A stretch of DNA of 63,421 nucleotides, counting the filler, from Licmophora abbreviata (taxonomy: Eukaryota), in NCBI GenBank assembly GCA_900291995.1. It is 13 parts of 13 records of this genome, joined end to end, with 100 filler letters (N's around TTAATTAATTAA, not from the genome) between each part and the next. Parts side by side here need not be neighbours in the genome. Positions count along the whole stretch, not along the records: positions 1,909 to 8,079 come from OLMU01004205.1; positions 8,180 to 12,125 come from OLMU01004207.1; 11 more parts are not named here. One strand, given 5' to 3'. The notes below the pieces were generated by a model. It saw only the letters and a list, made by a program, of their open reading frames with translations, had not been told where the DNA came from and did not search any database. Shown one piece after another: positions 5,329 to 12,978 of this stretch; positions within the stretch are counted from its first letter, which is position 1; each line of letters begins with the position of its first letter. The position numbers and the translations under genes are program-made.

Positions 5329-6327
5329 CTACTTTAGTCGCTCTTCCAGCTGTTTCACATTTTCTTCCATGATGTCCGAACTCTTCTTCAACCCAGCTTG
5401 CACAGAATCCACAGCTTCTTCCATTTGTTTCAACGAAATCTGTGTTTGCTGCAAGACTTGTTCGGTGGAAGTCAATCGACCGTGAAAGGTAGCTGTTTGC
5501 ACATGCAACTGCGCCAATTGCTGCAGTCGCAGTGAAAGTGCAGGTAAATGCTGTGAGACTCCCTCAAGCGACTGCATCTGTTGGTGCAATTCCGCAATGG
5601 TTTGGGATTCTTGTTTGGTGCTACTGCTGGTGCTGCTGCTCATCAGTTTGTTCTTGGCCTTGCTGGCCGCCTCGAGATCACTGCGAATAACCTTGGCGCG
5701 TGTGGCAAAGTCATCGAGGGATTTGTCGTCTACGCGTCGCAACAGCGATTCCATATGGTCCAAGCGTTGGAGCAGAGAAGAGGACAGTGTGGCACCAGTG
5801 GAAGCACCCAAGGCTTTCTCGAGACGAACCAAGCGCTGCTCTAGCAGAGGAGCAGCGGATGATACAGTCTGCGTTTCTTGGGCCACGATTTCATAAGTAG
5901 TTCCATCGGTATCAGTCTTCGTAGTAGTACTCCATGTGCTCATGACTCGTTGCTCGAGTCGTGCTACCAGTGCTGCGGCTTGCTGGGTGACTTCTGCGCT
6001 GCCGCTGTCTGATTCCTTGAGTTCCCTCTCCAGCGTCGCAGCTTGCTGCTGTAGCTGATACAAGCGTAGTTCCGGGGCAATCCTGTCCGAAGTAGTAGTA
6101 GCATATCTTTGCTGCGCTTCTGTGGGACTCAGCAGGCTTTCGCCAGTGTCCAAGATTGTCGTGACGATGTCAGACTGATGCCGTCCTTCCATAGATGACG
6201 CGGTCGTTGTCGCAGCAGGTACACTTGGAACGGGCAGAGGAGCCAAGCCGTCGCTCGAAAAGACAGCTTCTCCTCCGGCTGCGTCGGCAGCGTCTATCGA
6301 GGGAGACGAGCCTTCCTTGCTACTCAT
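5329..6327 (-). CDS. DCTN2: dynactin subunit 2 (dynamitin/p50)-like
   Basis: LEQRLVRLEKALG; LPALSLRLQQLAQLH..TATF; terminal MEENVKQLEERLK coiled coil. Confidence 0.75.
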   Translation of the reverse strand: MSSKEGSSPSIDAADAAGGEAVFSSDGLAPLPVPSVPAATTTASSMEGRHQSDIVTTILDTGESLLSPTEAQQRYATTTSDRIAPELRLYQLQQQAATLERELKESDSGSAEVTQQAAALVARLEQRVMSTWSTTTKTDTDGTTYEIVAQETQTVSSAAPLLEQRLVRLEKALGASTGATLSSSLLQRLDHMESLLRRVDDKSLDDFATRAKVIRSDLEAASKAKNKLMSSSTSSSTKQESQTIAELHQQMQSLEGVSQHLPALSLRLQQLAQLHVQTATFHGRLTSTEQVLQQTQISLKQMEEAVDSVQAGLKKSSDIMEENVKQLEERLK

Positions 6328-6690
6328 TCTTTGGATTATAATTTGCAATTGGTGGCGTGTGCACGACGGTGAGAGGGGCGTTTGCTCAGTAAATGGTCGA
6401 CATGGTCAAAGCACAAACAAAAAACAAAAAAGGCCAACCAAAACAGTCCAAAATTCAGGAGCGAGCTCCAACAAGAGAAAATCATCCCAAATACCTCTCC
6501 CACGACTGACTTTTTCGTGACTCAAAATACATGACTGAATGCGTCATATTCGTGATTGATTTACTTGCCTCAGACTGACGCACTTTGTGTTCGGCGCAAT
6601 CAAATTGCGAACCAAAGATGATGGCCATCACCCATTATCTTCCATGACGGCACAATCCATGTATGATTGAGCAAACGATCGGTTTCAGTG

Positions 6691-8427
6691 ATGAGGGCTA
6701 CGAAGCTCCATTCGATCCTTATTGTGCTACTGTGTTCTGCAGGAGGAACAAGATGGGCAGAGGCAGCTTTTCTGCAAAGTGCCGGCGCTCCTATGGGTGC
6801 TTGCAAAATACGGACAACGACTAATTCGAAAAAGAAAACATCTTCCCTGCATCTATCCACATCCGACTTGGCGCGAGAATGGACTGCTCGCAACAGAGCC
6901 TCGGATGAAAGTGTCTTTCCCTCGTCTGAGTCAGTTTTGGAGCCATCGTTGTCAACCGTTTCTTCATCTGCTGTGCCTGAAGTTTCGCACAAGCCTGTCA
7001 CCTCTTCCTACACAGATCTAGCCCGAGAATGGGCTGCCCGAAACAAGGCTTCGGACTCTATTAGTGCTACAAAGTCAACGACCACTCCCCCACCTACAAA
7101 ACCGCAATTGTCTATATCTGCAACACCTCCCATTGCATCTTCTTCATTCAAATCTGAAGCCTCCGCCTACTCTGATCTTGCCCGAGAATGGGCTGCTCGA
7201 AACAGGGGCTCAGATACTGTCAATGGCGCGAGGCTAACCACCCCCTCCTCCTCAACGACACCCTTGCCGTCACCAGCTACAGCTTCTCCACGGGATTCTC
7301 CTGACACGTCTGCCGCCGCCTCTTTGCCCATGTCAGATTTGGCCCAAGAATGGGCTGCCCGAAACAGTGCCTCGGGCGCAGGGAATTTAGAAACGCCGAC
7401 CGTTTCGTCGTCTGCGAATGACTCGGTGCAAACGTCACCGACTGCTGATGCCAGCGTACCACTCCAGGAGAATGAAGTTTCTGATACTGCGACACAATCG
7501 CTGGATATTCCTGCAATAGTGTCTTCGTATGACAAGGCACTCTGGTTGGATGAACAGACAGGTAGATTCTATGAAGCGCCTCCCTCGGCTATGGCTTACT
7601 CCAGATCAGATCCAAACCCACAAGTGGAACAGATCGGTACTCTCAAGAGGTTTGCTGCCTCTCGTGGGGGTTTCGAAACCCTTCAGAAGCAACTCGAGGA
7701 TCGCAATACGGTTGTGGAGGGTGAAGGCCAATATGCTGTTGCTGATGGTGAACTGGTCGGATCGTCGAGAGGCCCGGACGTAGTCAGTGAAGCGACAAGG
7801 GTGGCCCTCAGCGAGTTGTCGACGAACGATCAATTGAGCGACGAAGAAAGACAGACCTTGATTGCGCAAATTGAGAGAATGACCGAACCCCGCCCCTATC
7901 CCCTTTTCCTGGCCGAAAAAGCCGCCGAGTTTGTTGAATCTTCGGTCAAAGGTTTGTGGAAGCCGTTTAAAGGTCCTAAGAAGTCTCTAGGACATTTGTC
8001 AGGCAGAGGGTCGCGCGGGAAGAAGCGTATCGTCGTCCTGGGCTCCGGATGGGGTGCTGCCGCTTTTCTCAAGGAAATCNNNNNNNNNNNNNNNNNNNNN
8101 NNNNNNNNNNNNNNNNNNNNNNNTTAATTAATTAANNNNNNNNNNNNNNNNNNNNNNNNNNNNNNNNNNNNNNNNNNNNCCAATGATTAAATGCTGATAC
8201 CTCTTTTGCTCTTGCTTTTCTCGATATCCGGCAGTGGCAGGGGCACGGCGCTAGCCCAGGTCGAAACCGCTCCGGAGGTACCCCCAGTGTTAGGTTCTGG
8301 AAAAGTGGGCAACCTTTTGTGGAGAAGCGTCTATCTAAGCAAACAGATCTCGTGGAGGAACCGATTGCTTGTGATAAATGACTGGACCAAAAAGAAGTTG
8401 TTTGGGCGGGACATTACAAGGGTGTAG
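6691..8427 (+). CDS. type II NAD(P)H:quinone oxidoreductase (NDH-2) with plastid presequence and long repeat-bearing N-terminal arm; middle lost in gap
   Basis: KKRIVVLGSGWGA FAD motif before the gap; LLWRSVYLSKQISWRNRLLVINDW..KLFGRDITR C-terminus after the gap; signal peptide ending AEA-AF. Confidence 0.85.
6862..7365 (+). repeat. four coding copies of (S/T)DLA(R/Q)EW(A/T)ARN at 6862-6894, 7012-7044, 7171-7203, 7333-7365
   Basis: Read directly; spaced 50, 53 and 54 aa by S/T/P-rich linkers. Confidence 0.97.
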
Positions 8428-8863: not shown

Positions 8864-10417
8864 ATGAAGCTACAGTATTTGGCTGCATCAATCGGCCTCG
8901 TAGTACGCGCGCGAGCGGCCGCAACAGACGAGGTAAGCAAGGCCTGATTGTCACAAGAGATAGACTCTCCTGGGCTCGCGATCTTTATGTCGTATGATAC
9001 CTCATTGTTCTCTTTCATCCCTTCTCAGGCGGAGCCGAAACTTACTTTTGGTCGCTGTCAACCAACCTGTATTGACTTCGCTAGCACTCCCGACGGCAAA
9101 GTACTGGAGCATGGGGAGTACGTCAAAATGGAGTGGTACAAAAAGTACGGACTCGAAATTCACGCAGAATCAACGTACGGAGGCTACACACCGAACGGCA
9201 TGGCACGCATCTTCAATACGACCTTGTATGGGACTGATGATACGGATTTGGGAAGTCCGAACCAGGCGTGTCCATCAGGAGGGCCAGGGGTAGGCGAAGG
9301 TGGCACGCCAAAGAAGCGCGGTGAGAACTGTAGTCCACAGGGAAATATACTCATTATTCAAGAAGAGAACAAGCATCACCGCCCAGATGATAATGCCTAC
9401 GGTGGGACCTTTACATTTACCTTCGATAAGCCAATGGATGAGATTGAACTCGGACTGATGGATCTGGATGGTCCCAGCGCGGCGACTCTGTCTATCGACC
9501 AGGTCAAGGGTGGAAAGCCCATCATTGTGCCGATAAGTGGACTAGGTGACAATTCTATCCAAGAGGAAAAGATCATAGTACCCGATATGAAGGCTGTTAT
9601 GGTCAGCCCGGTCAACTCATGCGGTATCCGGTACATCTGTTTCTGTTCGGAGAAGGAGAACCCTGCGCCGATTCAGATTTTTACACCAAAACGTCCTCCT
9701 CCCTTCGAAGCGTGTCCCTTGACCAAGGAACCTACCAGCAACTTGGAGGAGATCAAGATCGTCATCGAGACCCTCAAATTCAAGGACTTGAACATGCCTC
9801 GCCACGTAACAAACATGATGGAGTTTTTTGAGCTTGTTCGGACCTTTCTGTCAGATGAGGTGAGTCGTGAGACGACGGACCGAGCGCTCGTATATTTGCT
9901 CTGGAAGACACCCGAAAAAAGGGATCCTCTTGCACCTTCCGACCCGGTACCGAGCGGTACGAGGAAGGTACCGACGACTAAGTGTCTAACAGAGCTTGGT
10001 ACGTTGGTGTTGGCTGAAATCACGGCTCTTGGTACTCTCTTCGGCATGGACGGCAAGTCGGCTGAGGTAGCTGGAAAAACCGTTACATGGACACTTTTTG
10101 AAACCATGGACGATCTCGAAGTTAAGGAACTGGTCAAATCTCTTAAAGCGCTGACTAAGACGGACGATGTAGCAGCGCTCATTGTCAAGACGGCATTCCA
10201 TAAGCTTGGTGGGGGTGGGATTCTGCAAGGGATGGGATCGGCTGTACCATGGTGGGATTGGCTGATCATGGGGACGACGATTGCAGCTCAAGTTGTGGCG
10301 GCTGCCGTGTCGAACGGTGTGAGCCTTGTCTCAGAGCTGAACAAGTTTGGTGATGTGGACACTGCTGATGTTGTTAAGGCCGACGCTGCCTGTGTGGGAC
10401 TCTTTGAAACGGATTAG
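8864..10417 (+). CDS. secreted two-domain protein; intron 8933-9028
   Basis: Signal peptide MKLQYLAASIGLVVRARA; Cys/Gly module DLGSPNQAC..GGPGVGEGG..ENC..GNILIIQE..PDDNAYGG; helical hydrophobic C-terminal domain. Confidence 0.75.
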
Positions 10418-12125: not shown

Positions 12126-12978
12126 NNNNNNNNNNNNNNNNNNNNNNNNNNNNNNNNNNNNNNNNNNNNTTAATTAATTAANNNNNNNNNNNNNNNNNNN
12201 NNNNNNNNNNNNNNNNNNNNNNNNNGGCTATGGGGTGTGATAGCGTTTGTTGGGGGTTGCCACTGTACTCTAAGAAGATAGGGCATGTCGGAATGATGAG
12301 GGCCTCTTCGTCACCTACAAACGTCGATGCACTGAGACTCGACTCGGCGTTCAATGACGGCGTGTGGACTGCCAGTCGACTCGATTGTTTTGAGATACGA
12401 ATTTCGAAATCTTCTGTTGATTTCTTGGCCGATGGCGTGGGTACGGTACCTGGTACCTCTCCTGTCTGCCGTAACTGGTGCCATTGTTTCGAATGAATGC
12501 TGACTTTGCAAGAGGCGCAGTAAGATGACGGGGGTAGAGGGGAGTTGCGTGATCTCTCGCTGCGTGATCTCTCGCTGGCTGTCGTTTCTCAGCTACCGTA
12601 CTGCTACAATATCGGTTGCATACGATTCGACTTCCATTCCTCAGATTTGCTTGTAAAGGTACGGATCAACACGAAAATCCGCCTTCTTGGGAGGGGTTCC
12701 ATGCTAAAGAATGATTGATCAAGGTGGCGAGAAAAAGAGGAAGCGATTGAAGTCGTCGTGTGCAAAGGCTAGGATGACGGAACTTGATGCTCAAGTTCAA
12801 AACGATCATGGACACTACTGATACGCTATGATACAGAACGTCCAAGCAAAGTTATGCATGACGAAATCATCTAGAATAGTCGAAGCGCTCTACGGATCGT
12901 CGGCAATCTCTTTGCAAGGAAACATGAAAGAGTGAAACCCGGAGCAGCTCGACATCTTGTGCTCTTGGGGGGCGATGC

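Follow-up and report, generated by a model that had tools for sequence, protein, structure and literature searches.

In a 63,421-base stretch of DNA from the diatom Licmophora abbreviata (assembly GCA_900291995.1; this whole stretch is what we call the window), the locus at positions 6691 to 8427 is almost certainly a nuclear diatom gene for a predicted plastid-targeted type II NAD(P)H dehydrogenase (NDH-2) of the Ndi1/NDA type, equipped with a selected N-terminal arm that carries four near-identical ‘stickers’. These probably belong to the family of the helices by which PYCO1, from Phaeodactylum tricornutum, contacts the Rubisco large subunit (RbcL); whether, by way of them, what would be a plastoquinone-reducing NDH-2 is a multivalent client held at the Rubisco matrix is in our judgement evenly balanced. 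The parts of the gene are given below, with helices and confidence scores (predicted local distance difference test; pLDDT) taken from AlphaFold2 (AF2) models, isoelectric points given as pI, residue numbers counted in amino acids (aa), and sticker bit scores taken from a profile built from three sticker-bearing proteins that lack an NDH-2 domain (the ‘non-NDH-2’ profile).

6691-6768, plus strand: signal peptide, aa 1-26, with a hydrophobic core at aa 5-14, ending ...WAEAA before F
6769-6861, plus strand: transit-peptide-like stretch, aa 27-57, with five K/R and no D/E, pI 10.5, S/T-rich and predicted to be disordered
6862-7530, plus strand: disordered, acidic, S/A/T/P-rich sticker arm, aa 58 to about 280, linkers with pLDDT below 50, pI 4.85
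6862-6894, plus strand: sticker 1, SDLAREWTARN, at aa 58; AF2 helix 58-67; 26.9 bits on the non-NDH-2 profile
7012-7044, plus strand: sticker 2, TDLAREWAARN, at aa 108; AF2 helix 110-117; 34.1 bits on the same profile
7171-7203, plus strand: sticker 3, SDLAREWAARN, at aa 161; AF2 helix 159-170; 36.9 bits on the same profile
7333-7365, plus strand: sticker 4, SDLAQEWAARN, at aa 215; not helical in AF2; 27.2 bits on the same profile; in an alignment gap against the orthologue P0117
7531-8019, plus strand: module before the NDH-2 core, aa 281-443, from phmmer and AF2, with a beta-hairpin LWLDEQTGRFYE, a helix LQKQLEDRN (aa 331-339) and a helix RPYPLFLAEKAAEFVE (from aa 401)
7681-7707, plus strand: diverged clade helix LQKQLEDRN, aa 331-339; L331 and N339 nearly invariant in alignment A2
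8020-8079, plus strand: start of the NDH-2 Rossmann fold (KKRIVVLGSGWGAAAFLKEI) that binds flavin adenine dinucleotide (FAD); aligns with GTGWGAA of P0117 and of the clade
8080-8179, no strand: gap (N44, TTAATTAATTAA, N44) hiding about 400 aa of the NDH-2 core; P0117 435-837 is without counterpart
8180-8234, plus strand: probable 3' end of an intron, pyrimidine-rich, with an in-frame stop; no similarity to P0117 until about 8233; splice site inferred
8235-8427, plus strand: last exon, with the membrane-anchoring C-terminus NDH2_C (PF22366) and a stop at 8425-8427; matches P0117 838-901

From the ATG at 6691, the open reading frame (ORF) stays open for 463 codons and ends in KKRIVVLGSGWGAAAFLKEI at the gap, such that the sticker arm and the first GxGxxG (GSGWGAA) lie in a single unbroken frame on one contig; the latter forms part of an FAD-binding beta-alpha-beta element, read from the sequence as RIVVLGSGWGAAAF (aa 446-459). 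Pfam gave no significant match for the whole 463-aa ORF, and no families for its last 60 aa before the gap. Past the gap, the frame starting at 8182 reads the NDH-2 C-terminus through to its stop, with positions 8230-8424 matching PF22366 at 55 bits (cut-off 27.7; E-value 9.4e-15), and candidate AG acceptors that finish at 8234 or 8240.

The full arrangement can be followed in P0117, a protein of 901 aa with matches to PF07992 (Pyr_redox_2; 108.5 bits) and PF22366 (57.2 bits), and a core that matches yeast Ndi1 (PDB 4G6G) with an E-value of 4.9e-67. The Pyr_redox_2 core with the second dinucleotide-binding site is found here, and in the window falls within the gap, leaving the first GxGxxG and NDH2_C as what the window retains of the Ndi1/NDA type. 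The N-terminal piece of the window protein aligns with residues 8-434 of P0117 (40% identity, E-value 3e-83), stickers 1-3 matching those of P0117 position for position, and the C-terminal piece is identical at 56 of 64 residues. Because the ORF runs uninterrupted into GSGWGAA, NDH2_C follows past the gap, and P0117 is collinear with both, we take arm and enzyme to be one protein. P0117 was the sole match in a search with a four-repeat profile (1 of 1,083 candidates), a figure that is not a measure of how widely the motif has spread.

A quite different account would have arm and NDH-2 joined only by concatenation of contigs or by a wrong gene model, or the protein residing outside the plastid. 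The window is indeed stitched together by 12 spacers, one of which cuts this very gene, and no RNA is to be found among the sequencing runs listed for the stretch; set against this are the unbroken ORF, the same order of parts in the independent P0117, a further relative (P0001) that runs on for about 200 aa into the NDH-2 core, and a presequence pattern that recurs across the clade, which together make such an artefact exceedingly improbable. The identification as an NDH-2, put forward in a preliminary description of this DNA, is thus borne out by the first GxGxxG, the NDH2_C match and the collinearity of P0117, and the separation of arm from enzyme that would have undone that description is contradicted by the single ORF and by P0117.

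As a side observation on the enzyme itself, the end of the second Rossmann beta-strand reads KVIEASSS in the relative P0064 vs KVLVSSST in P0117 (aa ~617-626), the latter missing the acidic residue. An acidic residue at this point usually accompanies a preference for NADH in NDH-2s, and P0117 may, from its absence, accept NADPH; the corresponding part of the window protein falls in the gap.

As had been proposed, the N-terminus resembles a bipartite plastid presequence of the diatom kind: a signal peptide closes with a small residue and F, and a basic stretch comes next. This feature is conserved across the clade. By a by-eye count in alignment A2, a small residue and then F or W closes the hydrophobic segment in 20/21 clade members having an N-terminus, and P0117 conforms too. 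The combination of an ER signal with an ASAFAP pattern is given as the rule for stramenopile plastid proteins in the portion of the literature available to us. From sequence features only, the window protein is predicted to share its compartment, the plastid stroma, with Rubisco.

Turning to the stickers, the pattern [ST]DLA[RQ]EW[AT]ARN has exactly four matches in the six-frame translation of the window, all inside the ORF at 6691-8079, and a looser pattern applied to the same six frames returns these four and no extra. They are spaced 50/53/54 aa apart, and their Leu codons vary (TTG/CTA/CTT/TTG); coordinates, spacing and codons all stand as the preliminary description had them. Summed over the six pairs of stickers, there are 21 synonymous vs 9 non-synonymous codon differences. 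The linkers between them share just 22-31% identity at the protein level; their DNA is about 55% identical (z 0.9-4.0 vs shuffles, near random expectation), and Tandem Repeats Finder detected no DNA repeat. It is the synonymous excess within the motifs, the low identity of the linkers and the lack of a DNA repeat which together indicate that the sticker has been kept while its spacers drifted; by these measures the array is an old repeat, of which only the 11-residue motif has been retained, and the earlier suggestion of unrelated linkers with protein-level selection on the motif holds. The composition of aa 27-260 is dominated by S (21%), A (14%), T (11%) and P (9%).

A small feature adjoins the stickers of the NDH-2 arms, where the helix is followed by [RKSG]-[AG]-S-D (RNRASD, RNKASD and RNRGSD; window positions 6895-6909, 7045-7059 and 7204-7218, with P0117 and P0100 alike). 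The conserved Ser could act as a phosphorylation switch, and other carriers of the motif are acidic at this place. A phosphorylation switch is known for EPYC1.

The arm itself is shorter than first thought. An arm of about 400 aa had been described between presequence and FAD motif; a sticker arm does exist, but spans about 220 aa (aa 58 to ~280), and the rest (about 160 aa, aa 281-443) proves to be a module common to the wider NDH-2 clade. An exhaustive phmmer search with the 463 aa gave 99 hits at an E-value of 1e-3 or below (35 of them at 1e-10 or below), most of which cover just aa 260-463. AF2 models this clade module as a hairpin with four helices, at pLDDT values of up to 92. The sticker-bearing part is present in three of 23 aligned sequences (the window protein, P0100 and P0001), with P0117 as a fourth case; sticker counts among these orthologues are 4 in the window, 3 in P0117, 2 in P0100 and 1 in P0001, and most of the clade has none, which answers the call in the preliminary description to look for the motif in NDH-2 orthologues. 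We suggest that, in one NDH-2 sub-lineage, a disordered arm was added near the N-terminus, behind the transit peptide and ahead of the conserved module. No solved NDH-2 chain extends over the first 410 residues of P0117, and so both the sticker arm and the conserved module would lie outside the known NDH-2 fold, neither having a counterpart in the solved structures.

AF2 places helices at three of the four window stickers (block pLDDT 59-76) and at two of the three in P0117, within models of low mean pLDDT (56.4 and 49.7, respectively) whose linkers fall below 50. A word-based homology search with aa 40-260 of the arm returned just 2 hits among 8,000 scored candidates, the low-complexity linkers swamping the index, and offers no measure of spread; the ESM Atlas, queried with the arm and with P0106 (one of the carriers described below), gave no usable match.

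The proposed link to Rubisco comes by way of PYCO1, for which we rely on the sections of Oh et al. 2023 (PMC10288592) available to us. These describe a cryo-electron microscopy structure in which AAEWGSMNQ (residues 577-585) is helical and lies in a cleft of the large subunit that is hydrophobic, W580 occupying a pocket made up of F102/F104/L361/F366/F482 and bonding D92, and N584 hydrogen-bonding Y89; ASEWASMNT (residues 532-540) is a second large-subunit helix (PMC10288592). The string AAEWGSMN and its A-x-E-W-x-x-x-N register, which the preliminary description had given, are confirmed by that text. All four window motifs read A-[RQ]-E-W-[AT]-A-R-N, and thus sit within this register.

Profiles point the same way, and do so from two directions. 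With one that drew on 37 instances of the family and left PYCO1 out, the PYCO1 helices reach 22.4 and 19.5 bits, inside the range of the family (minimum 17.0, median 26.5) and above the best of 63,621 background 9-mers (12.1 bits); alignment of the motif to the PYCO1 helix, as had been proposed, therefore gives both a shared register and a family-range score. The non-NDH-2 profile, in turn, picks out exactly 4, 3, 2 and 1 stickers in the NDH-2 proteins at 26.8-37.3 bits, the next-best NDH-2 sites reaching at most 4.6 bits and the background maximum being 12.1 among 45,283 16-mers. Across the 37 instances, drawn from seven proteins, N stands at +4 in 34 (where the search pattern allowed N/S/K), and at positions left free 35 instances have R/M at +3, 33 have M/Y at -7, 32 have D/E at +8 and 26 have D at -5; the positions that match the contact residues of PYCO1 are conserved. 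We summarise the motif as [M/Y]-x-D-L-A-R-E-W-A-A-R-N, predicted to form short amphipathic helices.

The proteins other than NDH-2 that carry the motif are instructive. The sticker-region hits of the phmmer search include three, with 4, 6 and 17 copies spaced mostly 45-61 aa apart, each having a signal peptide after which comes F, Y or GAFAP. The first (P0046/P0106; 587 aa, full length) has a signal peptide ending in G before F, four stickers and a C-terminal coiled coil, and the last 170 aa of P0046 are identical (170/170) to Phaeodactylum tricornutum XP_002184798.1 / B7GCF0, the public B7GCF0 model consisting of just these last 170 aa. Its stickers are one LAREWATLN and three LAKEWASMN, a mixture by which this array bridges the window type and the PYCO1 type. 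The second (P0068/P0116; 1,001 aa, full length) has a signal peptide then Y, proline-rich repeats and six stickers; in the third (P0032; 1,882 aa), GAFAP comes after a hydrophobic segment and there are 17 stickers, with DLAREWGAMN as a frequent form, which makes this protein a candidate multivalent scaffold. Pfam found nothing in P0106 or P0116, and only a sub-threshold match in P0032. Taken with the codon evidence, this distribution shows, at the level of predicted proteins, a motif that is modular and under selection.

Two observations on these carriers may be recorded here. In the N-terminal half of P0032, five stickers are interleaved with copies of another repeat, about 35 aa long (…DLYQQRNQHLVAAVEAGHETRWGVLETDKAAAE…). 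Only seven numbers separate the UniProt accession of the coiled-coil protein with four stickers (B7GCF0; P0106/P0113) from that of PYCO1 (B7GCF7), which hints at nearby genes on one chromosome.

When the PDB was searched by sequence, neither the arm nor P0046 nor the four-repeat profile retrieved the PYCO1 fragment, the motif being too short for HMMER thresholds. One sentence in Oh et al. 2023 (PMC10288592) states that variants of the PYCO1 large-subunit helix occur in other proteins; the literature searched, together with portions of two diatom pyrenoid proteome preprints and of a 2026 review, describes no motif family beyond PYCO1, and within diatoms PYCO1 is, on this literature, the only protein previously described with such a helix. 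In the same literature we found no NDH-2 placed at the pyrenoid.

If the stickers do bind RbcL, the pocket ought to be there to receive them. A diatom rbcL barcode primer pattern gave 117 metagenome loci, 30 of which hold red-type RbcL ORFs (three of these being truncated or of other length), and Y89, D92, F102, F104, L361, F366 and F482, numbered as in PMC10288592, are all present in 27/27 ORFs of 490 aa. The target pocket would thus seem to be general in diatom-type Rubisco, a requirement of the hypothesis, though not one that tells it apart from its rivals.

It may be instead that the stickers bind some shared plastid partner other than Rubisco, such as a pyrenoid or thylakoid scaffold, a shell protein, or (by charge) the basic linkers of PYCO1-like proteins, with the contact between PYCO1 and RbcL being a weak side interaction. 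A motif common to at least four unrelated families with plastid presequences does imply a common partner, without naming it; as reported in the sections available, the large-subunit contact of PYCO1 is too weak alone to shift Rubisco; and all of the arrays are acidic, as would suit partition into a basic condensate. Against this, the only structure for the motif family is on RbcL, with contacts made by exactly the conserved W and N, and the pocket is invariant in every one of the 27 diatom-type RbcLs; on balance we hold a non-Rubisco partner to be unlikely, if well worth keeping in mind.

Several observations also weigh against binding of the window arm to Rubisco, or complicate it. AF2 gives no helix for sticker 4 of the window protein or for sticker 2 of P0117. 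The arm is acidic, with a pI of 4.85 over aa 58-260 (4.25 for the arm of P0117), as are the sticker arrays of the other carriers (pI 4.3-5.1), where PYCO1 is basic (pI 10.03; PMC10288592) and the search criterion for linkers, in the part of the literature available, is a pI above 8, a value that the window arm does not reach; such acidic charge would, moreover, favour uptake into a basic PYCO1 phase with no contact to Rubisco at all. The large-subunit helices of PYCO1 are weak: in the sections consulted, the C-terminal fragment alone gave no gel shift, and mutation of the small-subunit sticker abolished the shift (PMC10288592). The co-immunoprecipitation tables for Phaeodactylum Rubisco (PMC10288592) list neither B7GCF0 nor any protein named NADH dehydrogenase, an absence that we consider uninformative, given that the Phaeodactylum NDH-2 may lack stickers and that B7GCF0 is a 170-aa partial model. 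Lastly, the presence elsewhere in the NDH-2 clade of a helix in the sticker register, described next, would permit another origin and another partner.

In the plastid NDH-2 clade at large, a helix EK-x-L-R-x-E-I-A-x-R-N lies just after the transit peptide, is followed by YAVADGE, and has the register of the stickers. Its conservation was counted in 47 matching rows, less P0043 and P0046, which were dropped as non-NDH-2: with L at -4 and N at +4 fixed by the pattern, the W position is filled by I in 36 and by L in 9 of the 45 NDH-2 relatives, of which 33 have E at -1, 30 have A at +1 and 36 have R at +3. Members of the subclade with stickers have a diverged form of this helix (LQKQLEDRN, LKKELEYRN, LQKQIDARN), and the clade helix reaches no more than 1-3 bits when scored with the W-type profile. 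We speculate that LRxEIAxRN may have been the evolutionary seed of the stickers.

Such an origin lends itself to a further explanation, namely that the stickers are internal duplicates of the clade helix and share whatever role that helix has, be it membrane association, dimerisation or autoregulation, and that their likeness to PYCO1 is convergent. The shared register and residue preferences of the 45 relatives speak for it, as do the near-invariance of L331 and N339, which alignment A2 brings out independently, and the divergence of the clade helix in just the subclade with stickers, as if its role had passed to them. W-type arrays are also present, however, in PYCO1 and in proteins without an NDH-2 domain, where an intramolecular role cannot explain them; a common origin is itself compatible with Rubisco binding, as the clade helix could be a weak sticker; and the clade helix is barely recognised by the W-type profile. 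We regard this explanation as improbable.

Comparison with known systems helps to place the arm. The two C-terminal helices of PYCO1 (PDB 7YK5), as set out in the sections of PMC10288592 at hand, resemble the window stickers in register, in being short, in their disordered context and in being part of a plastid-targeted protein; PYCO1 differs in relying mainly on KWSP small-subunit stickers, in being basic, and in having no enzyme domain. The window protein has four motifs of this kind rather than two, R not M at +3, a longer conserved N-terminal part to the motif ([M/Y]-x-D-L), and an acidic arm on a membrane flavoenzyme; no KWSP motif could be read in its 463-aa ORF.

A similar principle operates in the Chlamydomonas proteins with a Rubisco-binding motif (RBM), namely EPYC1, RBMP1/2, SAGA1/2 and CSP41A, where (in the sections of Meyer et al. 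2020, PMC7673724, available to us) a Trp helix is common to a linker, membrane proteins of traversing thylakoids and an enzyme-like protein, and the RBM targets its carriers to the pyrenoid and ties the parts of the pyrenoid together, having been proven both necessary and sufficient for the targeting. There, R/K comes directly after W and the residue at +4 is hydrophobic, and the motif binds the small subunit of Form IB Rubisco; in the window, W is followed by A/T, with N at +4. On sequence alone, which is how they are known here, the window stickers are not members of the RBM family, since motif, target subunit and Rubisco form all differ. CP12-like and EPYC1-like motifs were considered as separate candidates for the stickers and dropped, as the residue patterns do not fit.

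With the linkers that condense Rubisco (EPYC1, CsLinker, SUPA1 and PYCO1), the arm shares its alternation of sticker and spacer, a period of about 50 aa, and helices predicted within disordered spacers. A linker should have at least three repeats in a largely disordered protein, and the arm has four stickers 50-54 aa apart; a linker should also be free-standing with no catalytic domain, and here the arm is fused to NDH-2. It is unlike the condensing linkers in being acidic, in having only four stickers and in being covalently tied to a membrane enzyme. Because it is acidic and fused to an enzyme, the arm is better seen as a client or tether, and this role is more likely for it than that of a Rubisco-condensing scaffold. 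According to a diatom pyrenoid proteome preprint, centric diatoms lack PYCO1, and Thalassiosira yielded no repeat linker.

Synthesis of these observations leads us to a speculative scheme for the tethered enzyme. The catalytic domain would sit on the stromal face of the thylakoid, held by the helices of NDH2_C, and would there reduce plastoquinone, an acceptor suggested only by the plastid targeting. Four individually weak stickers on spacers of about 40 aa could then engage RbcL sites in a multivalent manner, such that the enzyme partitions to those membranes that touch the Rubisco matrix, i.e. the pyrenoid-penetrating thylakoid; the same tether may also help to hold matrix and membrane together. 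That the stickers bind RbcL in vivo, and so enrich the enzyme on these membranes, is a proposition for and against which the evidence is about equally matched. As to physiology, we can only surmise that non-photochemical plastoquinone reduction, or cyclic flow, might build a proton gradient close to the lumen that releases CO2, a surmise that leans on three pieces of background. Alternative electron pathways reportedly power Chlamydomonas's CO2-concentrating mechanism, and chlororespiration is said to have been studied in diatoms. The plastid NDA2 of Chlamydomonas is an NDA-type NDH-2.

More tentatively still, and with a good deal of doubt, we raise the possibility that all this forms part of a diatom-wide system of Rubisco-binding motifs, answering to that of Chlamydomonas though aimed at the large subunit, in which the helix [M/Y]xDLA[RK]EW[AGS]x[RM]N would serve as a portable pyrenoid ‘address’. 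Its carriers would be PYCO1, the Phaeodactylum coiled-coil protein (4), the proline-rich protein (6), the 1,882-aa protein (17) and the plastid NDH-2 of one lineage. Were this true, plastoquinone would be reduced non-photochemically on the thylakoid traversing the pyrenoid, and electron flow there could acidify the lumen in which bicarbonate is converted to CO2; LRxEIAxRN would become a weak ancestral sticker, in which event diatoms in general would have a plastid NDH-2 associated with Rubisco.

Little is settled about the way in which diatom pyrenoids draw in and order their components. The locus and its fellow carriers give a precise definition of the motif behind the large-subunit helix of PYCO1, and mark out a few candidates for clients and tethers of the pyrenoid. 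A tethered NDH-2, if such it is, would for the first time connect plastoquinone reduction at the molecular level with the CO2-concentrating compartment of diatoms, and would make testable what energises the release of CO2 in the pyrenoid-penetrating thylakoid.

It remains to describe the surroundings of the gene, the features of which are as follows.

1809-1908 (the first), 8080-8179, 12126-12225 and others, no strand: spacers, N44-TTAATTAATTAA-N44
5332-6327, minus strand: dynamitin gene, the upstream neighbour (PF04912, E-value 3.7e-27)
8865-10417, plus strand: downstream neighbour gene, which begins like a signal peptide and has one apparent intron; no Pfam family matched

The 12 spacers within the window are identical, each consisting of N44, TTAATTAATTAA and N44, and separate pieces of about 1-24 kb; we take them to be six-frame-stop spacers for the joining of contigs. 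Gene order across spacers is not to be assumed in the window, yet it holds for the NDH-2 gene. Neither the dynamitin gene, whose best relatives are only 37% identical (Cyclotella atomus being the sole named one), nor the downstream gene has an evident tie to NDH-2. The low identity of the dynamitin relatives points to a diatom that has no near kin among the sequences searched.

Finally, DNA contigs from marine metagenomes of three studies match positions 6400-8079 at low depth, with 0-4 letters different per piece. Four runs contribute eight pieces of 151-330 nucleotides (nt) with no joints between them, none covering the whole of this stretch, and a single 151-nt piece extends beyond 8079. 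Given that near-identical contigs occur at low depth in marine metagenomes, the host organism would appear to be marine, and rare in the waters sampled.

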